A stretch of DNA of 64,000 bases from a virus (IMGVR_UViG_3300025949_000022:11104-75103), one strand, 5' to 3'; numbered from the stretch's first letter, positions 22,124-51,153 are shown. Notes: generated from the letters alone by a model not told the origin. Translations and numbers: made by a program.

Positions 22124-25100
22124 TATGGGTTTATGTTTATGGTAAATACATGATTGGCGCTCATATCTACGCCAGTAAAGGTAATATACCCTGCAGTCAT
22201 GCCTCCTGTCCATACACCAGCTATCGGGCCATACGCGGATGCGGTCAATGCCGAACTGGACGGCATATAACCGTTGCCCACATAGAATATCACGGTAGAC
22301 GCTGCGGTTCCTGCTGCGGTATTATCGGTTACATTGCCCAACGGCGGAATATTTATAGATTGCGGATAATTCGTGCCATCAATTTGAATTGACGGCGATT
22401 GTATACCCTTAATAGTGCTATTATTGATAATATTGAAAGTATTTGCAGGCGCTGGTATCGTGCATGCTCCTGTGTTTAATATTGTAGGGATATAATTAGT
22501 ATTTACCACCCTGTTTGTTAATGTGGCCCATACTCCACCTATTTTTTTGTATAGAATATCAGATAGTCCATTATACCATATATCGCCGTCGCTTCCACCG
22601 CTTGGGGACACGTCCGTATTTGGATTTGACGTAATTGTAGCGGTGTTCTGAACAATAGCATCGGGCGAAATATTCCGAATATTCGGCATTATTCGACCTG
22701 TCAGTGCGCCGGTTGTCAGGTTTTTTTCATCGATTATATTCCATCCTTGTTGCCCCGTATTAGCGCCGCCAATCGTTTCGCAATAATTTGTAGTGGCATC
22801 TATTACCCATGTTAAAATCGGGTCAGGCGCTTTGATAATATTGAAACAGAGCTTAATTACCGGTGTAAGCCCCGCGCCTGCGGGTAACGTCCCCTGAAAC
22901 GTAAAGAAGTCTGCACCAACCGTGCTTGTTCCCGTAATTTGTATTTGATTGGCTACTACGGTAGCCGTGCTGTGTGCGGGTTGTGCTACGATAGCCCATG
23001 TTGTGCCGCCGGGGTATAATGCCAAAGTAGTTTGCCAGTCGTTTGTATAAAAGTCACCATTAAAAATGTAGTCTATGTAAGATGGAATTGCCCATAAATC
23101 TTCGCCGTTAAGCCTGTCGCTCGCACCGGTAATCTTTACGTTATTCCTTGCTACTTTGGTTAAAATCGCCCGCGCTTTTTTATCAAAAAGATATAGTTCT
23201 GAAATGGGTATAGAGCCATCCTGCGCTATCCTGATAAAAACCCCTGAATTTGCCGAAGCAAACTTTTGATACGATCCGTCATCAAGCCAGCTTTCAGGGT
23301 TATTACCTATCCCGCCTTCCCATGATGAGTATTGAAGTTCATTAAGTAACTCGCTGGAGGTAGTTAGTAAACTGTTACCCGAATTATCCTGTATTAGCCT
23401 TTTATTTACGGGTGTCCATGTTGTTTTTAAGGGCTTAAAGATAAATAGATAATCCCCTCGCATCCGTGTAAGCGTTATTGCACCGTACTGATCGTTGTAA
23501 TCTTTTCTGTCAAGGTTGTCAAAGTTATTCAACCCGTTTATACGTGTACCCTGAATATAGTTTTTTGAGAACCTTACCCGCTGTGTAAATAATACCTCTC
23601 CAAATCCCTGATCCTGCGGATATACCCGTCCTGTTCCATAAAGGTTTGAGATATAGAAATCGGAGAAGTTCGGGTCGCATATTTGATCTATAATAACCTG
23701 TGGATTCGGGTTTTGATTATTGGTCGGCATCGCCCTGTTGCGCACATACGCATCACCTTGCGAGATTTGTACGATACAAGGGGTAGTAACAGGGTTTAAT
23801 GGGTCTTGGGTTTGTATATTGCCTACATACGCCCCGTTGGTAATTGGGTATTTCTGCTGAAAGTCTGAAAAGTTCAGGTAACCCACATTTCCGATGTTTT
23901 GCTCAGGGCGGTATATTTCAACTAAAATCTGTACGCCAGCAGGGAATGAATAAGTACTCGGCGGGTTTTTGATACGCACTATTCCGCGTGTATCCCTGAA
24001 TGAATAATTAGGATATATGGTTGCCGCGCCTGTGCCACCAGCGTAGTTTACATTCGGCTGTAAGGGAAAATCCAGCACATACGATCCGCCTGATACGCCT
24101 GTTATTAATCTTTGAACATCATTGATAATAATATATTTACCTACGTGGTCTAAATCAGGGCCTTTGTCCGGTGTAACATTATTGCTTGCTGGGAAGGGAA
24201 CGGTAATGTTTGCCGCCACAAGTTCTATAACATCGTCCGAATAGCTTAATACCTCTGTTTCGTAATAAGGGGTATATAGTGTCGCTGGTACCGTTGATTC
24301 ATTGGATATCAGCCGTAGCCTGTCCCCTTTTTTAAACTCGTATTTAAGTATAGCATCGGGATGAATAAGTTGATAAGTGAATAAGCTGCCTACGATCAAA
24401 TCAAGGTAGGTATCTTCATTAGCAACCTCAACCACGTTAACTTGCTGGATTAATAATTGAATAAACGTAGCCGTGTCGTTCGTCCTTACAATAGAATAAT
24501 ATTTAGCCCATGACGGCGGTAAAGAGGTAATGGTAAGGGTATGTATGGGTTGCTGTAATCCTATTGGCGTTATTCCATCAGCGCCGTATTCTGTTTGAAA
24601 AGGCGTCCTGATAAGAAACGAATCGGTTGTGTACGCATTTGAAGTTACGCCGTCATCGTCATAAAAGATAATGCCGTACTTTTCAGTAGCGCCCATCTTT
24701 TTAGTATTTATAGATAGCCCATTATCCAATAAAGTGGAATAATTTACAGCGGTTACATTTGTGCTAAATACTATTGCATTATGCCCCTCATGGGCCTCTA
24801 TGGTAAAATCCCATGATGCATTGCCACCTGCTCCGCTTTCCCCGCTAACCGCGCCTGTGCCAACCGCATCAATAGTTCTAAGCCATTGTTTAATGCGGGA
24901 TGCTACTGTGCTGGCGGTATCTGAATTTGTTGCAGTATATGAAAAGGGCGAAACGCCGTTTCCTCCGGTTGCGCTGATATAAAATACATTCCCTTTTTTA
25001 ACATCAGAACCTACTAAAAAGTGTGTAACAGTTGTCCACCACGAGTTAAATAACCCGCCGCTTTCTGTTGAACTTGTTAACGATGAAGTAAAAGCAGGCG

Positions 25101-29740: not shown

Positions 29741-30865
29741 TTATGCGATAGATAAACCTTCTTTTTCAGCCGCCAAAACCTTGCGGTAAAGGGCTATTTC
29801 TTCAGCGTTATTCTCCATCGCTTTTTTAGTTAAAACGTGCGTTTTAGGATCGTTTTCATCCTGCTCCGCCCACTTCTTTATCTTCTCGAATTTGCCGTAG
29901 TCTTTTTTCAATTCTACGTATGCTTTCCACAACTCATTATCTACCTCTGCCAGTGTTTCTACTGCGCCGGTTTCCTCAAATGATAAATCGTTTTCAGGCT
30001 TGCTTAAATTAGTGGAAACTGTAATGCCTTCCAGTAAGTTATTAAGCTCGTCTGAATACATATACCATTTTTCTGATATGTGTTCTTCAAGTACTTTTCT
30101 CGCATCAATACCGTACTGTACAGGTATCACTTCCTTGCCGCCTAAGTACCACCGCTGCATACCATTTAAGGTGCGTAAATCGAGGATATGCGCGTCAATA
30201 GCTTCCTGTATTTTGCCTGAAAATGCTACCTCGCGGCTTTCAGCCATATTGATAAATTCAGATGGCTTTTGGTATGCTCTTGCCTTAAGTGTGTTTTTCA
30301 CAACCTCGTCGGTCATATCAGTAACTCCGGCAATACCCATTCCTTTTGCTAAAGTCCGTAAACGGCTTATGCTCCATGCGTTGTTGCCAAGCACTATTGA
30401 CATGGCTATAATGCGGGTTTCATCAATGTCGTTATCAACTTTCGCCAGGTGGTCGTTATCCAAAAACTCATAGAACACCGGTGACGATGGTTTCCTGAAA
30501 GGGCTTTGGCGGTTCATCGGGTTGATGTACCAAAACAGGAATGCCATTTCATCATTTATCAGCACCGCGCCGCCTTCTCCGCACTCCATTGCATTGTCGG
30601 TGGGGAAATACTCAAAATTCTGATCTTTATCTTTCTTTTGGGTTGTGGCTATCCGTACCTGTACTTCCCTGTTTAAAGTAGGGATATACACCGAAAAGGC
30701 ATTGCACATCAGGCGGTGTAAATGCCTTTTATTGCCGTCTTTATCCGTCCTTGTAGGGAACTGGAACCGCTTTTCGCGTGGTGATGGAATTGAGTTTTTG
30801 TTGATGCTAAGCAGTTCAAATAGTTTCGACTTGTTAACAACCTCGTCATTAATGTAAATAGCCAT
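29741..30865 (-). CDS. Conserved structural-module protein downstream of MCP
   Basis: Position equivalent to the post-MCP gene of crAss-like phages. Confidence 0.5.
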   Translation of the reverse strand: MAIYINDEVVNKSKLFELLSINKNSIPSPREKRFQFPTRTDKDGNKRHLHRLMCNAFSVYIPTLNREVQVRIATTQKKDKDQNFEYFPTDNAMECGEGGAVLINDEMAFLFWYINPMNRQSPFRKPSSPVFYEFLDNDHLAKVDNDIDETRIIAMSIVLGNNAWSISRLRTLAKGMGIAGVTDMTDEVVKNTLKARAYQKPSEFINMAESREVAFSGKIQEAIDAHILDLRTLNGMQRWYLGGKEVIPVQYGIDARKVLEEHISEKWYMYSDELNNLLEGITVSTNLSKPENDLSFEETGAVETLAEVDNELWKAYVELKKDYGKFEKIKKWAEQDENDPKTHVLTKKAMENNAEEIALYRKVLAAEKEGLSIA

Positions 30866-30914: not shown

Positions 30915-32381
30915 TTATATACCTATCAGTTTAATCATCTGATTGGCTAATGCTTGTTCAGCGCCAATTTCTGACCGTATGTCAAGGAACTTGCCATCGA
31001 TAGATGATGTAGCCGGATCGATGCCCGCGCCTCCTGTGTAATGTTGTTCCATTTCACGTGAGTAGCCACCAAGCGCCTTGTAGCGATAACCTACCGAAGC
31101 GGTTGCGTCTGTGTCGAACTTGCTTTGTACAAAATCGATTGGCAATACGTAACCTACACCCGACCAGTTATAACCTTCTGTTCCGGCGCCCATTTGCTCG
31201 TTAAGTTCCTCCTGTGTGCGTAAAAGGTAGTTGTAACCGCCTTTATGTACGCCGTCAAAGCCTAACCATAAGAAGAAGTCTTCTTTGTTAGAGAACGAGT
31301 TGAACATATCGGAACTGATTTTACCGCTTTGTGAGGCATACTGGAAGCAGGTATTGTTCATGTACGTTTTTAGCGTATTGTCAACCTGTGAGCGCAACCC
31401 GTATGCCATCGGCACAAGGAATGTTTTCGTACCGGCGCGTTCCCTTTGAAGTATAGTACCGATGTTGTCGAAATCAGCCATTGCAAAGTTTCCATAAGAG
31501 TAGGATAACAAGTTGCCACCGGAATTGGTGATATAGTCATCTACTCCTTGAGTAGTACGTACCGGGGCTACGCGGTTTTGAGCGGCTGCCATGTTTTGTG
31601 TAACGTTGCCGTCACCCTGAACCGAAAACCATAACGCTTTAGAAATCCTGTCCATGTGCAGTTTTTCAGTAGCTTCAGAACCTACGATCATCATGTAATT
31701 ACCACCATCAGAACCTGACACTGATACTACTGGCATACGGTCGGTCATTGCTGAACCTGTGATACCATAGGCTGTTTTGATGATCTGCGGATTATTCTGC
31801 TGACGGTATAAACGCGGTTCTTTTGGATCTGCGCCTAATGTTCCTTCTGCAAAGGCGTTGGTAGTTATCCAGTACCTGCCCTGTGCGGTTATTTTAGTCG
31901 CAAGGTCGTTTGTTGTTAAACGGGGCTTAATGGTCAACCGGTGCGGCGTAACGGTTTCATCTTTAAGGATGATCTGCGCTTCGCTATTGTCCACCAATTT
32001 GATAATATCCCACTGTGCTGGGTAAGAGAACGACTGTGTGCCATAGCCTGTTGTGGTAGTGGTGTACATAGATGTGGTGTCAAGTGCTACTACGATAGCC
32101 GAACCTACGCCGGTAGATGGTGTTATTACTGATCCTACCAAAAAGTTATTGATAATCCAGTCTTGTTCCCAGTGTGCATAGTTAGGGCCTTCAACCGATG
32201 TTCCTAAGCCCATTTCTTTAAGCATAGTGTACCAGTTCTTTTCCATTCCATGACGGGAAAGTAATTTTTTACGTACTTGCGGAACGTCCGCAATTAATCC
32301 GAGACCGGTTATAAAACCTTCGGATGTAGTCCCCATCACTGTTGATGGTTGATTTGAGTAATTATAAGGTGCTACTGGCAT
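30915..32381 (-). CDS. Major capsid protein
   Basis: 488 aa; Y.HWE, N..QIIKT.Y.ITGSA, TTQG.D.YI HK97-type motifs; position after scaffold. Confidence 0.85.
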   Translation of the reverse strand: MPVAPYNYSNQPSTVMGTTSEGFITGLGLIADVPQVRKKLLSRHGMEKNWYTMLKEMGLGTSVEGPNYAHWEQDWIINNFLVGSVITPSTGVGSAIVVALDTTSMYTTTTTGYGTQSFSYPAQWDIIKLVDNSEAQIILKDETVTPHRLTIKPRLTTNDLATKITAQGRYWITTNAFAEGTLGADPKEPRLYRQQNNPQIIKTAYGITGSAMTDRMPVVSVSGSDGGNYMMIVGSEATEKLHMDRISKALWFSVQGDGNVTQNMAAAQNRVAPVRTTQGVDDYITNSGGNLLSYSYGNFAMADFDNIGTILQRERAGTKTFLVPMAYGLRSQVDNTLKTYMNNTCFQYASQSGKISSDMFNSFSNKEDFFLWLGFDGVHKGGYNYLLRTQEELNEQMGAGTEGYNWSGVGYVLPIDFVQSKFDTDATASVGYRYKALGGYSREMEQHYTGGAGIDPATSSIDGKFLDIRSEIGAEQALANQMIKLIGI

Positions 32382-36994: not shown

Positions 36995-39109
36995 TTAAAC
37001 TTTATTATAAACAAACCATGTATTTTCTTTCGCATCACGCAAATCTTCGCCGGGATAACTTAGATATTGTTTATCTCTTGCGATTAATCCCCAGCCAAAA
37101 GCCGTACCTAAATCTTTTTTAGTCCTCACCTTTTTTGAACGGTTCATTGTTAACAAATCTGCGATAATTCTTTTATGCTTAATCGCGTTTGAAAAGTTCA
37201 TTACGTAAGATGATATTAAAGAAAAGAATTGATTGATCGTATCTTCTGTTGCGGGTGTTCCTACCTGCTTAATATTTTTGGCTGCATACCCTGTATGGTC
37301 GAAGGTATCTTCCGGCCTGTCCATTAAATACATTGAATATCCTCTTGCCCTAAAGTAGCTTTTAATAGCCCGTTTATTATTTTCCACGTTCATTTGTGTG
37401 CCGTAATAAACGTGCATCATTAACATGTCTTCAAAAAATACATTTGGGTCGCCCTCGCGGAATAAATAATCGGCTACTACCTGATTCGTTTCCCAGTTCC
37501 ATCCTAAATCAAATGGCGTGCCGTCATCGTGCTTTTTTGCTCCGTCAATATTATCGTCGTACATACGGAAAATAATACCCGCACCTTTCGAAGCTCTGGC
37601 CTTATCTACTATTTCGTCAATGTCATGTTCAAACGGGTCACATGCGCCTCTATACCTGCGTATATTACCCGGTAATCGTATTCCTGCGCTGCTGATCTCA
37701 CATAAATTATCGTTCCCATCCTTTAGCAGGTATGATACTTCCCATTTACCGTCTACGCATGGCTCAAAAACAACTTTTGTATCTCTTTGGCCGTTTACCC
37801 AAACAAAGTTTCCTGTTACCGTCCAGTCTTTAGGCTCAAACCCATAGGATTCAGGATATTCAAGCCGTCTTGATATGTCCTGTAGGTTTTCTTTGTTAAA
37901 TGCCGTCTTTTCACCGCTGGGTGTTAGCGCATCCTCGATTTTTAGCGGCGACTTTCTTAACAGGTTGCCTATTGCTTTTTCATTGCCCCTTGCCCGTAAG
38001 TTTGCGATTTCATTTTCAAGGTGTTTTTTTGCTTCTTCACGCTTCGGGTATCCAAAATCGTCAGTATCCGCACCATCTTCGGCTGATAGAAATACCCGCC
38101 ATACACCTGTTGTTGTCCGTCCGTTTTCGTTAAGGTCGTTGGGGTCGCTATCTTTCCAAAAACGGTTTACCTCGTCTATTTGTTCATCACTTACTTCCTC
38201 AATAGATGATTCTATCCAGCATTTACCTATAATTTCTGCACCGTTAAAATAATGCAGGGTAGGTTTAAATACTTCCCACCATGTGATAAGTGACATTGTT
38301 TCCAGCTTACCAGCTTCATTCAATATGCCCCTGTTGGTTTCCTGTCCATCATAGGCACTCGCTTTCGCCGGTTCAAAGTCAATTTTAGAACCTATTTCTT
38401 CTTCGCTGTACTTTACCTCTTCTTCTTCGGCATCCATACCGGCTTTGCCGCGCATTTTAGCGTCGGTCATCCGTTCGGATGGATAGGAAAACTCCAAACG
38501 GTCTTCAGGATCATCGCTACCCTTATGAACCGGCTTCATAAACCATATCATCTTTTTGTTTGCGCGGGTGATGCGTTTAAAGTTCTTATAGGCTTCTTCG
38601 TCGTTCTTTGATTGGTTATGTCCCTGAACGTTTCTAACGCGCGTACAGAACTCGTATTCCTCACCAAGCGTAAACTCTGTCTTCCCTAACCTTCGTGGGC
38701 CGACAAGAAATAACCCGTAACAATTGGGATCCCTTACAACCATATTCCACAACTGGAAAATGTGGCATTGAACTATTCTAAAGTCAGCATGTTTATTGGT
38801 TTTTGTCCACCAATAGTTTAAAAAGAAGTAGTATGGGCCGGTGATATAAACAGGTTCACCCTTTATGAGTATCCAAACGCCGTTCCTGCGCTTGTGCCAT
38901 TCATTCGCTATCCATTCTTCTTCCTCGCGAGTAACCCTGTTCTTTCTTTGGAGTAGTGATTTTGGTATTTCGACGTGCCTGAACTTTTGTTGCTTTTCCG
39001 GCAGACCATAGTTTATCATTTGGGTTTTAGGCGGCATTTTAGGCAGCGGTATCTTATAGCCTCCAAACTCCGTATATCCACCTATCGCCCTCCAGTCTGC
39101 CGTGTACAT
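36995..39109 (-). CDS. terL: Terminase large subunit
   Basis: YITG.YYFFLN, Walker A GPRRLGKT, Walker B-like ILNEAGK, nuclease GACDP and VENNK. Confidence 0.92.
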   Translation of the reverse strand: MYTADWRAIGGYTEFGGYKIPLPKMPPKTQMINYGLPEKQQKFRHVEIPKSLLQRKNRVTREEEEWIANEWHKRRNGVWILIKGEPVYITGPYYFFLNYWWTKTNKHADFRIVQCHIFQLWNMVVRDPNCYGLFLVGPRRLGKTEFTLGEEYEFCTRVRNVQGHNQSKNDEEAYKNFKRITRANKKMIWFMKPVHKGSDDPEDRLEFSYPSERMTDAKMRGKAGMDAEEEEVKYSEEEIGSKIDFEPAKASAYDGQETNRGILNEAGKLETMSLITWWEVFKPTLHYFNGAEIIGKCWIESSIEEVSDEQIDEVNRFWKDSDPNDLNENGRTTTGVWRVFLSAEDGADTDDFGYPKREEAKKHLENEIANLRARGNEKAIGNLLRKSPLKIEDALTPSGEKTAFNKENLQDISRRLEYPESYGFEPKDWTVTGNFVWVNGQRDTKVVFEPCVDGKWEVSYLLKDGNDNLCEISSAGIRLPGNIRRYRGACDPFEHDIDEIVDKARASKGAGIIFRMYDDNIDGAKKHDDGTPFDLGWNWETNQVVADYLFREGDPNVFFEDMLMMHVYYGTQMNVENNKRAIKSYFRARGYSMYLMDRPEDTFDHTGYAAKNIKQVGTPATEDTINQFFSLISSYVMNFSNAIKHKRIIADLLTMNRSKKVRTKKDLGTAFGWGLIARDKQYLSYPGEDLRDAKENTWFVYNKV

Positions 39110-39639
39110 CAGATAGTCGTTTTACTTTCCGCAAAGCGTTCCGCAAATTGCAGTAGCCTTGCTGTTTCTTCCCTCACCACTTTTCTTGTCTGCGCATCGG
39201 GAAATATCTGTCTTTCGTAATCAACCAGTGACTTGTGTATTGCAGGAAGCTGTTTTTCCACATTTAGGCGCTCTCTAACGGACTTTTCTATGTCATCCGT
39301 ATTCATAGGGCTTCGGATAAACATCGTTAACTGGTGAAAGTTTATGAGCTTTGATTGCCAAATCACAAAGGCCAGGTTATCCATCATCATAAATAACGCT
39401 GTCGCTATTTTGTTGTACTCTTTGTTTTCGCCGGATAATATGTCGGGGTATTCTGCCTTTAGGTGTTTGAGTACTTTAGCCAGCCTTGCGTCATAGTCGT
39501 CACGGTCGGCCTGTAGAAATGGGCTGTCCTCGGATATCATTAAAATAACTACCCGTAATAACTTATCATCCTCTGTTATGCCCTGCAGTGTCGCGTACTT
39601 CTCGCACATTGGCTCTTTGCAGGATGTATCATATCTCAT
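39109..39639 (-). CDS. Putative terminase small subunit
   Basis: Helical 176 aa protein coupled directly upstream of terL. Confidence 0.4.
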   Translation of the reverse strand: MRYDTSCKEPMCEKYATLQGITEDDKLLRVVILMISEDSPFLQADRDDYDARLAKVLKHLKAEYPDILSGENKEYNKIATALFMMMDNLAFVIWQSKLINFHQLTMFIRSPMNTDDIEKSVRERLNVEKQLPAIHKSLVDYERQIFPDAQTRKVVREETARLLQFAERFAESKTTI

Positions 39640-46691: not shown

Positions 46692-46760
46692 TCCATACTA
46701 ACATTAAAGCCAGCCCGACAGCCTCACCGCTTCGGGCTTTGGCGGCTATAAGAACTTACC

Positions 46761-46991: not shown

Positions 46992-47012
46992 AATACCTTA
47001 CTTAGTGTATTG

Positions 47013-47036
47013 AGCGGCATAATAGCCGCTTTTTTT
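47013..47036 (+). terminator. Intrinsic terminator
   Basis: AGCGGC...GCCGCT followed by T6. Confidence 0.8.
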
Positions 47037-47167: not shown

Positions 47168-47560
47168 GTGTGTAGTATGGAAAAATTAGGGATAAATACC
47201 CTTCCCGCAGACGATTATTGTAACAATGTAATATTAATACCATTGGGTAAATATTTAACGTTGCCATTAGATAGAATTCGCGCATTTATACCTGAAAGGC
47301 GAGGATTTAGATCAAGTGCATGTTTAGACTTGCTGGTTATTATTAATTGTAATCCTCGTCTTGCTATTACACGCGTATCTTCTTTAATGCACAGTAATCC
47401 TTATAAGGCAATTAAAAATGTTGCTTACCTAATGTCATTAGGTTATGTTAGACAGATTGGTAAACCTCGTCTTATTATCCCTTTTCAGCGGTTTAAGATA
47501 GATAAGGGGTATGTTATTACTCAAAGTGGTATAAAAGTACTTCGGGAATTAATGTCTTGA
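47168..47560 (+). CDS. Winged-helix DNA-binding protein (putative)
   Basis: L...GYV....Y.IT.SG...L pattern. Confidence 0.5.
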   Translation: MCSMEKLGINTLPADDYCNNVILIPLGKYLTLPLDRIRAFIPERRGFRSSACLDLLVIINCNPRLAITRVSSLMHSNPYKAIKNVAYLMSLGYVRQIGKPRLIIPFQRFKIDKGYVITQSGIKVLRELMS

Positions 47561-47884
47561 TTAAGGGGCTTAAAATGCTATTTTGAATGTCTATTCTCTA
47601 TCGCTTGGTTATTTTTGGTCTTTTCTTTTTTTGATTAGCTTAAAGGGGTTCGTTTTTATCGGGGTTTCATACCGGTTATATCCTCAATTTCGGCTTCGAT
47701 AATACTTACTTTTACTACGATGGTGTTAATAAAAGCCTCTACGTTTTCAGGTAATAGATACCATACTTCATGAGCGGCCAATTTGGCTTTGTTTAATTGG
47801 TCGCGCTCTATTAATAGTTCTTCAAGTCTGTTCATGTTATTAATGGTTTAAAGGGGCTGTAATTTTAGGTTTTTATGGCGGTTT

Positions 47885-49243
47885 TTATAGCTCAAATCCG
47901 TCTGGGAACGGTGAAATACCTTGCAAATATTCTTGCCTGTCATATTTGGCCTCGTGCCAACCAAAATCCCAATTACTATGGCTTGTTGTTGCTAATTCAT
48001 ATGGGTTTTCAGATAGTGGTTTGCCATCGGCATACGCTTCGTATCCTTCCTGTAAGGCTTCGTCGTTTTTCATCCCTCCTTCCCCTCCTGTAGATTAAGC
48101 TGGTTGAGGAAGTCGCGGAGTTGTATTGCTTCGCCTAAGCTTGCCACGATATTATCGTTATTTTGTTTGATAATAAGCGATTGATGCTCATTGAATTTTA
48201 AACTGACAGGCATTCCATCTTTTTCAAATTCTATTACTATTTCAGTTTTCATAATTTTAAGTTAGTTGTTAACGGATGGTATTATTTAAGGTGGTGGGGG
48301 TTAGTTAAGATCGATTATGTGGCGCAACTTATCAGGGCCATTAGCTTCATCGTATCTAGCTTCTAAGATTGGGAATTGCTCAAAAGCCTCGTCAACTGAA
48401 TCAGCTCTTACATTTAACCATGATGAAATATTATCGATCTGCTTTTTAAGCCCGGCAATACTTGGATAGGCCCTTAGCTTTCCGCTTTTATCCCTTGCAA
48501 TGATGTACTTTTTCATTTTAAAGTGGTTTGGTTAGTTATTTTTTTTGATGTTATGTTCTCTTACTGCCAAATCCCCATGACTTTCAGGGTCTATGGGGTA
48601 GCATACATTCACCGTTGTAGCGGCTTCGATGCTGATATTGGCAGATTGCTAAGACTTAGCATAACTTATACAGTTTCTTTACTGGCCTTTTCTAATAATT
48701 TGCCATATTGAGTACCGAGGGTGAACATGAATTTTTCGTCCGGGCTTTCAAATATAAATTCGCTTTGGTTTGGTGATAACCTATTTTTCTTTACGATAAT
48801 ATCGGCGCCGGTTTCTTCTTCAAACATTTCAATTGCTTCTGAAAGCTTGGCTGCATAATTGTTGTTGAGGGTGATAATTACTGATGAGTTCATTTTTGCT
48901 AAGTTTTAAATTGTTAATATTCTCTTTTTACTGCCTTAACCTCAAGCCTTGTGAGCGTTGAGGTGGCAGACCCTGATACGTATCAGGGCAAATCAGAGTG
49001 TTTTAATATCCCTAAGTAGGTGCCTAAATTCTATTGTCCTTCGGCTATTTGAAGTAGTAGGCTTTCGCAATGCTCATTAATATAATGCTCACACCCCTCA
49101 AACGTTTCAGGATATTCAGGCACATCTTCCCACTCTGTTTCAGCCTCATTTTCCGACCAAATACCCTGTGTGAAAGCAATAAACTGCTCGTCTGTATCAA
49201 ACTCCCATTTTTCGTTGTCAATACTTGTTACTGTTATTTTCAT
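47885..49243 (-). CDS. Array of small early genes (47885-48073, 48070-48252, 48301-48516, 48666-48893, 49031-49243)
   Basis: 60-75 aa co-oriented ORFs with A-rich starts, several acidic. Confidence 0.65.
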
Positions 49244-49263
49244 TTTTGCTAAGTTTTAAATTG
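48889..49263. repeat. Two identical 25-bp direct repeats TTCATTTTTGCTAAGTTTTAAATTG (48889-48913, 49239-49263)
   Basis: Direct reading; each spans the start codon of a minus-strand gene. Confidence 0.9.
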
Positions 49264-49778: not shown

Positions 49779-49828
49779 GATTAAGACCGCATTAGCGGTT
49801 TCGCTGAACTACAGCTCGTCAGTTAATC
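49779..49828 (-). ncRNA. Type I hammerhead ribozyme
   Basis: GAUUAA CUGACGA GCUG-UAGUU-CAGC GAAA CCGC-UAAU-GCGG UC|UUAAUC: full catalytic core and three perfect stems. Confidence 0.93.
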
Positions 49829-49927: not shown

Positions 49928-50046
49928 GTTTGATACGTTTTTTAATTTGCCTTGATTGACGATGTAAATATAAAGCGTTAAATTATCATTTCCAAATCTT
50001 TTTTCATTTATTTTATAATTTAAGTATTTATATTTACTTTTGGCCT

Positions 50047-50310
50047 ATGAACAACAGAGTATATGGCGTGTTTGCCGCTATAATCGATAACAATATTATA
50101 GTCATAGATTTTAATCTTAAAGACTTTTATAAGCAATTTGTGAATAAATGGTCTTGCTTTGATATGAATTATCAGGCGTTATACCGGCGTTTTAAAAAGT
50201 CGGATGCCTTTGAAATGGAACTTAGCGGGGTTGTTATTCATCTCCAGTGCATCATATTGAAGCCGCAAGCAAAGAGAAAAAAAGAAATTAAGCCTCGTAC
50301 TTATAAATAA
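50047..50310 (+). CDS. Small hypothetical protein, divergent from early operon
   Basis: ORF with TATATTTA element upstream. Confidence 0.5.
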   Translation: MNNRVYGVFAAIIDNNIIVIDFNLKDFYKQFVNKWSCFDMNYQALYRRFKKSDAFEMELSGVVIHLQCIILKPQAKRKKEIKPRTYK

Positions 50311-50341
50311 AAAAGCCGGGGTTATCCTTAAGTCCCCGGCT
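50309..50341 (-). terminator. Intrinsic terminator
   Basis: A6 GCCGGGG...CCCCGGC. Confidence 0.75.
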
Positions 50342-51153
50342 CTAAATAATTTTGTTGGTTAATTATTCGGTCTGGGGTTTTCGCTTTGCGCGGGTCTTTT
50401 TGGGTGCTCCTGCGGGTTCTGATAGCTTCTTAGCCATTAAATCTAATTGCCGGGCTTGGTTATCATAAATTACTTTTTGGGCTTTAAGGGCGTTGGTTTG
50501 AAGGTCTATTTGTGCCTGGATTTCTTTGCTCTTTTTTTTGAAATCTGCCGATAGGTCTTTTAATGTCTGTACGTGATCCATTTTTTTAGTTAATAATTCT
50601 GCTTCCTCTTGTTAATTTTTTTTACGGAGTTAGTCAGTCTGTTATGGGGGTTGGTTTTGTCGCTTCATTTGCGTGGTTTTTAAGTTTTTATTTTTTTCTT
50701 TTTTGATTAGCGTGTGGATGTTATGCGACCTCAGCAAGCGAACGGTAAATATTCATTTTGCCATAAGTCCATGCGTTAGGCGTTTTTAATTGAAGCACAT
50801 AATCGTTACCGTTTTTGAAGTATTTGATTACTTTACAAACGATATATTGCCGGGATTGGTAATCTAAAACGCCGACCTTTTTTATTTGACCGGTCGTTAA
50901 TAATTCTATCGTTATGTGATTAATTACCATATCAATTAGCTTTAACCTTAAAGTACTTTAGTGATTTTAACGTTTGTTATTTCGGGAACGCCAGCGCCCT
51001 TTAAAGCAAGATTTTCGCCAAATGATAACTCAACTTTTAGCCCTCTTTGCTTTTCAGCCTCGATAATAAGCTGATTAAGGCTCTTTACGGCGTTCCTGAT
51101 ATCAGTTGCCACATCCCTATCCGATCTAATTTCTACTGCTTCCATTTTTTAAA

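Follow-up and report, generated by a model that had tools for sequence, protein, structure and literature searches.

Two structured intercistronic elements of a rhizosphere phage belong to a small clade-specific family of double-hairpin spacers in Bacteroidota phages

The DNA analysed here (the window) is a stretch of 64,000 nucleotides (nt), bases 11104–75103 of the 75,103-base virus record IMGVR_UViG_3300025949_000022; the phage is labelled G000. Two structured elements, E1 and E2, occupy gaps between small genes in a short early operon transcribed from the minus strand. They are members of a small, undescribed, clade-specific family of double-hairpin spacers of soil and rhizosphere Bacteroidota phages, which is established by homology, structure, covariation, genomic position, the pattern of an accompanying start-codon cassette and absence from Rfam. 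We give about an even chance to the reading that the elements act in cis between cistrons, as signals for mRNA processing or stability, and at the same time form a recombination or cassette border. The two elements and their parts were located as follows.

48918–49001, minus strand: element copy 2 (E2), full covariance-model match, between the genes for proteins of 70 and 75 amino acids (aa)
48971–48988, minus strand: E2 hairpin P2, CCCUGAU-ACGU-AUCAGGG, a perfect palindrome in sequence and paired in the minimum-free-energy fold
48931–48969, minus strand: E2 long hairpin closed by UCUGCC...GGCAG, from the fold and the covariance model; P3 and P4 covary in relatives
48920–48930, minus strand: E2 purine-rich 3' tail UAAAAAGAGAA, of the tail pattern G-UA-aaAGA
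48552–48674, minus strand: element copy 1 (E1), full model match with an inserted extra hairpin, between the 75-aa and 71-aa genes
48647–48661, minus strand: E1 hairpin P2, UGCUAAG-U-CUUAGCA, a P2 type also present in the related genomes G001, G003 and G007
48564–48644, minus strand: E1 long hairpin with P3 CUGCCA/UGGCAG and bulge AUU, from the fold, the alignment and the covariance model

The long hairpin of E2 is built from P3 (CUGCC/GGCAG), P4 (ACCUCAA/UUGAGGU) and P4a (GCU-CACAA-GGC) with a 3' bulge UAA. In E1, P3 encloses two inner hairpins, namely AGCAU/AUGCU holding CCG-CUACAA-CGG and CCCCAU/AUGGGG, and the tail is UAAGAGAA. E2 and E1 folded better than their shuffled counterparts (z = −4.7 and −3.8, respectively), with none of 200 shuffles as good. 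Within the window the pattern UCUGCC...GGCAGUAA was confined to the E1 and E2 sites, and a looser CUGCC...GGCAG scan of the whole 75,103-base genome gave no further copy of this layout. Both MAFFT and the covariance model identified CCCCAU/AUGGGG of E1 as the homologue of CCUCAA/UUGAGG of E2, and the AGCAU/AUGCU arm with its CUACAA loop as an insertion. An earlier reading of the window from sequence alone (the sequence-only reading) had described two related structured elements, and all of the features that it listed are present in the sequence. The arms with an ACAA-containing loop, which it regarded as common to both copies, do not correspond to each other. The closing stem could not be kept as part of the shared layout: CUCU/AGAG in E2 and GUUAUG/CAUAAC in E1 lie in different registers and have no counterpart in relatives.

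Six related phage records (five complete genomes of 71–76 kilobases and one provirus) were identified by the large terminase. The terminase also led to prophages in Sphingobacterium detergens and Pedobacter sp., the closest relatives with an assigned host, which points to Sphingobacteriaceae hosts. A BLAST comparison of the operon with the five complete records matched almost solely the two elements and the start-codon cassette, and led to homologues in G001, G003 and G007. Covariance model R1, built solely from these homologues, found E2 at 54.3 bits (E = 2.5e-12) and E1 at 45.2 bits (E = 1.3e-9) and added new members in G002, G004 and G005. Because R1 was made from three other phages and recovers both elements, the resemblance between E1 and E2 is not due to chance. 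Model R2 was built from eight members; it scored E2 at 75.8 bits and E1 at 50.2 bits and added second copies in G001, G003, G004 and G005, one copy in contig L113 and a weak third relative in the window:

46693–46758, plus strand: weak third relative between two plus-strand genes (R2 16.6 bits, E = 0.044–0.35 by search size)

This weak copy consists of the long hairpin only (AGCCCGA/UCGGGCU, a short P3 and the tail UAUAAGA). Contig L113 was reached via a tail-plus-start pattern scan, which gave at least one new member among the 80 loci listed and searched. The collection comprises 14 instances across eight phage contigs, with two copies and the weak one in the window and one or two in each relative. 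R2 gave no match at E ≤ 0.1 in more distant relatives (provirus G006, the terL of which is 51% identical, candidate host genomes, other terL-related contigs and metagenome loci) and no counterpart at E ≤ 1 in the Sphingobacterium detergens and Pedobacter genomes that carry related prophages. The exact pattern UCUGCC-N20–50-GGCAGUAA-N0–3-GAGAA was discarded as a search tool; its 26 matches in viral contigs were all unstructured chance occurrences. The palindrome UGCUAAGUCUUAGCA occurred in viral contigs in the relatives, as scattered single chance matches and as nine copies in one unrelated high-GC phage. In this phage (IMGVR_UViG_3300022685_000009, loci L075 and L077) UGCUAAG(U/A)CUUAGCA is repeated nine times, apparently between genes and in many cases directly ahead of a ribosome-binding site and start codon, and has the appearance of a repeated operator or regulatory hairpin peculiar to that phage. 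Its identity with P2 is probably coincidental, since 15-nt palindromes number only ∼65 000.

In the consensus fold P2 has 5–7 perfect pairs of type-specific sequence (CUGCUAA/UUAGCAG, CCCUGAU/AUCAGGG, CCGCU/AGCGG, UUACCU/AGGUAA and others) and is a perfect palindrome in nearly all instances; it is missing in the G005 copies, in G003b and in the plus-strand copy of the window. The linker between P2 and P3 is usually a single U (six instances) and can be 6 nt long (AUUGAU). P3, of 5–6 base pairs (bp), is mostly CUGCC/GGCAG, with CCGGC/GCCGG in G001, CUGUC/GGCAG in G002 and CUGCC/GGCGG in G004. P4 (6–7 bp) stacks on P3 at the 5' side, while an A/U bulge of 3–4 nt is found on the 3' side; a small internal loop, P4a and a terminal loop of 4–12 nt follow, P4 and P4a together making up 9–13 bp. 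The terminal loops differ (CACAA, UUAG, UUAAAAC, UUAAUU, CCUGAAA) and the bulge sequence varies; in G005b the bulge positions are paired, which makes the stem continuous over 13 bp. The structure is followed by a purine-rich tail with the consensus UAAAAGA(C).

Homologues with covariation, which the sequence-only reading had left to be looked for, are at hand in related phages. In the 14-sequence model alignment 95.6% of the cells pair, changes on both sides occur in 15 of the 20 pairs and P4/P4a pairs in every cell. None of 500 shuffles reached the observed values and slid partners gave 3–5 pairs. As this alignment had been fitted to the model, MAFFT and RNAalifold were also run; with eight sequences they recovered P3, P4 and P4a, with covariation in eight of 14 pairs. 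The only conserved unpaired positions (≥70–90% of the 14 instances) are the A after P3, UU in the bulge and G-UA-aaAGA in the tail. Conservation is therefore seen at the base of the long hairpin, in the A/U bulge and in the tail, with the distal loop and the insertions free, a pattern in keeping with recognition of a hairpin at its base and not with a catalytic core.

Three further observations concern alternative pairings. The 5' flank of P2 carries a 5–7 nt near-repeat of the P2 5' strand (CUCUGAU at 48989–49001 in the window, and likewise in G002, G004a, G004b and G003a) at a spacing of 8–10 nt, and the P2 3' strand could pair with either copy; the repeat is individually weak (p = 0.02–0.7), with a Fisher combination over six independent P2 types of ∼p = 0.01. 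In G004 (31770–31826, plus strand, in L066/L224) a second 3' half, GGUCAGC-CACAGA-GCUGGCC-UU-UGGCAG-UAGAAAAC, lies downstream of the G004a element and could pair with the same 5' CUGCCA strand; it is either a second, partial copy or part of an alternative fold. Pairing of the P2 loop (GUCUU) with AAGAC of the tail into a pseudoknot was dropped; only members with that P2 type could form it, and it shows no covariation.

Rfam 15 contained no family to which the elements could be assigned. E1 and E2 gave no ribozyme match at gathering score, and no match was found at E ≤ 10 when the stretch searched about the copies was 7 kilobases, 1.4 kilobases or 461 nt long, nor in the 141 nt that surround the G003 homologue. 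None of the known self-cleaving classes in Rfam 15 (hammerhead, twister, twister-sister, pistol, hatchet, HDV-like, hairpin) is matched, nor are the covariance models for RAGATH motifs (RNAs associated with genes associated with twister and hammerhead ribozymes). A neighbouring hammerhead likewise escaped the wide searches, but a 91-nt search segment, used as a positive control, recovered it as RAGATH-1-hammerhead (24 bits, below gathering score) and HH9 (19 bits). The narrow searches are therefore sensitive, and the elements still have no match in them, so that the novelty proposed earlier stands with respect to Rfam. The elements resemble the RAGATH motifs in being structured RNAs of unknown function near a hammerhead, here in a phage.

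49779–49828, minus strand: type I hammerhead with canonical core, ∼770 nt 5' of E2 in the same operon

This hammerhead, already noted from the sequence, is genuine: it consists of stem I (6 bp), CUGACGA, stem II (4 bp), GAAA, stem III (five pairs including the A-U closing pair) and GUC, and it is not a chance occurrence because only 0.01 is expected per shuffled genome under criteria looser than the observed stems. Pattern scans for canonical cores of types I, II and III, which would miss non-canonical cores, found, among the seven related genomes examined, a type I hammerhead in G000 and a type III in G005 only, and none in G001–G004, in the 3-kilobase piece of G007 that was covered or in L113 (types II and III). 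The early regions of the relatives gave no Rfam match. The G005 hammerhead (24534–24582, plus strand, in L225/L070) is a canonical type III with stems I, II and III of 8, 4 and 4 bp and a GUA cleavage triplet. It lies ∼290 nt downstream (3') of the G005 hairpins, in an ORF-free stretch of ∼700 nt that also holds the two hairpin elements (ORF, open reading frame), and was not listed by Rfam at gathering score or at E ≤ 5. The association of element and hammerhead across genomes appears loose.

Instances occupy gaps between same-strand ORFs. The element starts 0–31 nt past the upstream stop codon in the nine instances for which the stop was located, and its 3' side leads into the A-rich leader of the next gene. 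All 14 matches are read on the strand of the neighbouring genes as mapped here, including the weak plus-strand copy between plus-strand genes. Directly 3' of E2 stands a start-codon cassette, a second copy of which is found at the preceding small gene.

48878–48913, minus strand: start-codon cassette AAUUUAAAACUUAGCAAAAAUGAA, directly 3' of E2, heading the 75-aa gene
49228–49263, minus strand: second copy of the start-codon cassette, heading the 70-aa gene

The two copies in the window have 36 nt in common with 89% identity. The cassette, (A)UUAAAACUUAGCA(AAA)AUGAA, stands at the start of small, mutually non-homologous ORFs in four or more genomes, with sites at ∼39502 in G001, ∼46887 in G003 and ∼67050 in G002, and is readable inside the listed ORF of G007. 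The ORFs in this slot encode 75 aa (G000), 94 aa (G001), 109 aa (G003) and ∼91 aa (G007) and gave no blastp match among one another; each is framed by the same 5' start cassette and the same P2-type 3' element. Between G000 and G001 the identity extends into the last four codons of the ORF. For most genome pairs the DNA similarity of the early region (3–4 kilobases) is limited to these islands and a few genes.

The operon of G000 runs from its promoter through a 28-aa hydrophobic ORF, the type I hammerhead, the 165-aa gene, the 70-aa gene, E2, the 75-aa gene and E1 to genes of 71, 60, 62 (RMF-like) and 59 aa. Its control signals and those of its neighbours are listed below.

∼49965–49996, minus strand: operon promoter of Bacteroidota type, TTTG-N19-TATATTTA, at the operon head, downstream of the canonical U-tract terminator at ∼50305–50345
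∼50305–50345, minus strand: canonical hairpin-plus-U-tract terminator closing the operon upstream of the hammerhead operon
47012–47031, plus strand: canonical hairpin-plus-U-tract terminator closing the plus-strand gene pair

The latter two sites indicate that ordinary intrinsic terminators are in use elsewhere in the phage. The small proteins beside the elements have almost no relatives, unlike the large terminase: the 165-aa and 75-aa neighbours have none in viral contigs, a metagenome scan with this protein pair gave no match and the 75-aa protein has one relative, P0002 (68% identical), in Logan assemblies. The 62-aa early protein (47885–48073, minus strand) matches Pfam ribosome modulation factor (RMF; PF04957, E = 4.9e-8, above gathering score); this phage-encoded RMF-like protein belongs to the same operon as E1 and E2.

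In the favoured reading, each functional step of which we infer, the transcribed module would act as a processing and stability signal in the early operon. An endonuclease would cut at the bulged helix or in the tail, the candidates being an RNase III-like enzyme for the bulge and, for the UA-rich tail, an RNase specific for single strands. The upstream cistron would keep a 3'-terminal hairpin that blocks exonucleases, the downstream cistron would get an unstructured leader and the small early genes might in this way receive individually set mRNA lifetimes. The logic would be that of the RNase III sites of T7 early mRNA and of the hammerhead cut elsewhere in the operon; that the operon is cut into units, as the sequence-only reading supposed, is plausible, and in that case host RNases acting at these hairpins would be the likelier agents. 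The module may also provide a homologous border for swapping small ORFan genes among phages, a role suggested because the module is conserved and the flanking ORFs are not.

The closest parallel for the processing step is bacteriophage T7, the early polycistronic RNA of which contains five RNase III signals; RNase III sites with bulges or loops receive single-strand cuts that leave protective 3' hairpins (PMC3867540). Like the T7 signals R0.3–R1.3, the elements recur as irregular, mutually related hairpins between the cistrons of an early polycistronic phage transcript and, with the exception of the continuous stem of G005b, have two helical segments split by an asymmetric unpaired region. The expected product of the T7 signals is a protective 3'-terminal hairpin on the upstream message (PMC3867540), whereas cleavage of the present elements is a proposal. 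The elements further differ in being unrelated in sequence, in adding the 5' hairpin P2 and a conserved purine-rich tail, in their shorter helix and in the Bacteroidota host.

Several points weigh against the processing and border reading. With 14–18 bp of helix, the long hairpin would be among the shorter substrates of RNase III, unless stacking of P2 on P3 extends it. The evidence from orientation is weak because nearly all genes of the window lie on the minus strand. The distance to the next start codon is 17, 37, 47 or >100 nt, so that there is no single translation-linked geometry. Folding energies of the sense and antisense strands differ by a mean of 0.01 kcal/mol, the sense strand being more stable in seven of 13 cases; because of this equality a hairpin at the DNA level is thermodynamically feasible as well, and the perfect Watson–Crick palindromes of P2 would also suit a DNA-binding protein. 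Moreover, a single sequencing run is listed as containing this stretch, the rhizosphere metagenome from which it came; that is a DNA sample, and no RNA run is listed.

A regulatory hairpin recognised by a protein, acting either as a translational operator of the downstream gene or as a processive antitermination signal of the nut/put kind, is considered unlikely. A distal part free to vary, with conservation concentrated in the base of the helix, the bulge and the 3' tail, is what protein-binding hairpins typically show, and in all of G001–G004 exactly 17 nt separate the end of the hairpin from the start codon of a conserved RHH-like gene (RHH, ribbon-helix-helix). However, this spacing travels with a common leader sequence: the hairpin-plus-leader UAAAAGACAAUAAGAUUAUG that precedes the RHH-like gene in G001 (one base different in G004) precedes a cytosine methyltransferase-like gene in L113, and elsewhere the distance is 37 to >100 nt. 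G000 carries the element without an RHH-like gene, and no candidate binding protein is conserved across all genomes. The put RNA of phage HK022 consists of two stem-loops with one unpaired base between them and lies shortly downstream of an early promoter and upstream of terminators. The single U between P2 and the long hairpin in six instances recalls this arrangement, and the elements share with put and with lambda nut the character of cis-acting hairpins in phage early transcripts. On the other hand, E1 and E2 lie ∼1 kilobase from the operon promoter rather than just behind it, a simple scan listed no minus-strand terminator-like site between them and the operon end near 47656, P2 is dispensable in several members and the loops are variable, in contrast to the conserved boxB loops of nut.

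The RHH-like gene itself (∼65 aa) is positioned directly 3' of the element and the ORFan slot at 38945–39136 in G001, ∼66443–66628 in G002, 47317–47523 in G003 and 30517–30711 in G004. Its Pfam matches, to ParD and Antitox_RHH, are weak and below threshold. Such an order resembles that of variable anti-defence genes with a conserved small regulator behind them.

That the elements are transcription attenuators or terminators, causing partial stops of RNA polymerase that grade the expression of successive early genes, is likewise unlikely. They are stable hairpins directly after stop codons, between small early ORFs, and repeated in the operon, and the promoter-early stem-loop (PeSL) motifs of T4-type phages do terminate or attenuate (PMC2839356). 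The elements, however, lack a U-tract and have an A-rich 3' flank, whereas the genome's own terminators are of the hairpin-plus-U form. Strong termination would silence the downstream genes because no promoter follows the elements to restart transcription: no host-type −7 motif (TAnnTTTG or TAnnTTT(G/A)) occurred in or within 25–30 nt of the 13 instances checked, in a scan that recovered the operon-head promoter as a control, and no sigma-70-like site was present within the elements.

PeSL cassettes are the nearest parallel for the border role, since they flank ORFans of T4-type phages and mediate their exchange (PMC2839356, PMC4122927). Like these, the elements form a repeated conserved intergenic stem-loop motif ending at the next start codon, flank small ORFans in variable early regions and create islands of identity where non-homologous ORFs swap. 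Unlike them, they have no internal promoter, their stems are not poly-G/poly-C and they show two hairpins with a covarying bulged architecture.

A feature of the DNA with no role in RNA, either a recombination or cassette-exchange site or a protein-binding site forming a cruciform or single-stranded DNA hairpin, appears distinctly improbable. It would account for the nearly universal perfect palindromes of P2, for the elements and start cassettes as islands of identity around non-homologous ORFs, for the CUUAGCA direct repeats that flank the ORFan slot and for the equal sense and antisense folding energies. But P2 differs both within a genome (E1 versus E2) and between genomes with homologous RHH-like genes (G001 versus G004b), and one binding protein therefore cannot explain it; an operator of the RHH-like protein was dropped on the same grounds. 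The maintenance of P3/P4 pairing through many double changes, the asymmetric bulge and the one-sided conserved tail argue for selection on a folded single strand with one reading direction.

For a given ORF, the P2 5' strand UGCUAAGU of the element behind it is complementary to the core ACUUAGCA of the cassette at its head, and in G002 the cassette and P2 sides change together (AGCUUAGC versus GCUAAGCU). The complementarity could reflect long-range pairing across the ORF or short direct repeats (CUUAGCA) at both slot borders. We regard as highly doubtful an undescribed RNA device of the ORFan slot in which a toggle between long-range cassette ACUUAGCA/P2 UGCUAAGU pairing and local pairing, made conceivable also by the repeat in the 5' flank of P2, or self-cleavage, would couple the expression, processing and exchange of small early (possibly counter-defence) genes.

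The sequence-only reading had put forward a candidate new ribozyme or processing motif. In a new self-cleaving ribozyme class, the P2/P3 junction, the bulge and the tail would form the active site of protein-free cutting. The absence of an Rfam match, which excludes a known class, the covariation-backed RNA structure and the presence of hammerheads in the same early regions of G000 and G005 speak for it. Some ribozyme classes were reportedly discovered by Weinberg and co-workers (2015) via hammerhead-type neighbourhoods, although most motifs near hammerheads in that original survey are said not to have self-cleaved. An invariant catalytic core is not seen: the 14 instances have few conserved unpaired positions and differ in how long the linker is, in the sequence of the bulge and in the terminal loop. 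E1 accommodates an entire additional hairpin, the G005 copies, G003b and the plus-strand copy of the window lack P2, the bulge of G005b is fully paired in the 13-bp stem and the proposed closing stem is not conserved. The canonical-core scans, with the coverage given above, place the element without a hammerhead in five of the seven related genomes examined, and the proposal is very improbable. Mimicry of a CRISPR repeat or host RNA (R2 has no counterpart at E ≤ 1 in two candidate host genomes) and a signal for stop-codon read-through or bypass (stop-codon distances are inconsistent) were dropped.

The elements are a solid candidate for an Rfam-type family of unknown function rather than a demonstrated new mechanism. 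They would add a new RNA motif, backed by covariation, for the soil Bacteroidota phages, in which RNA biology has hardly been approached by experiment; the motif delimits a slot in which unrelated small early genes are swapped between phages, near occasional hammerheads. If the elements are processing sites, they would reveal the way in which the early operon RNA of these phages is split in hosts without Shine–Dalgarno-led initiation; if they are recombination borders, variable early (possibly anti-defence) genes could be located in metagenomes with their help.

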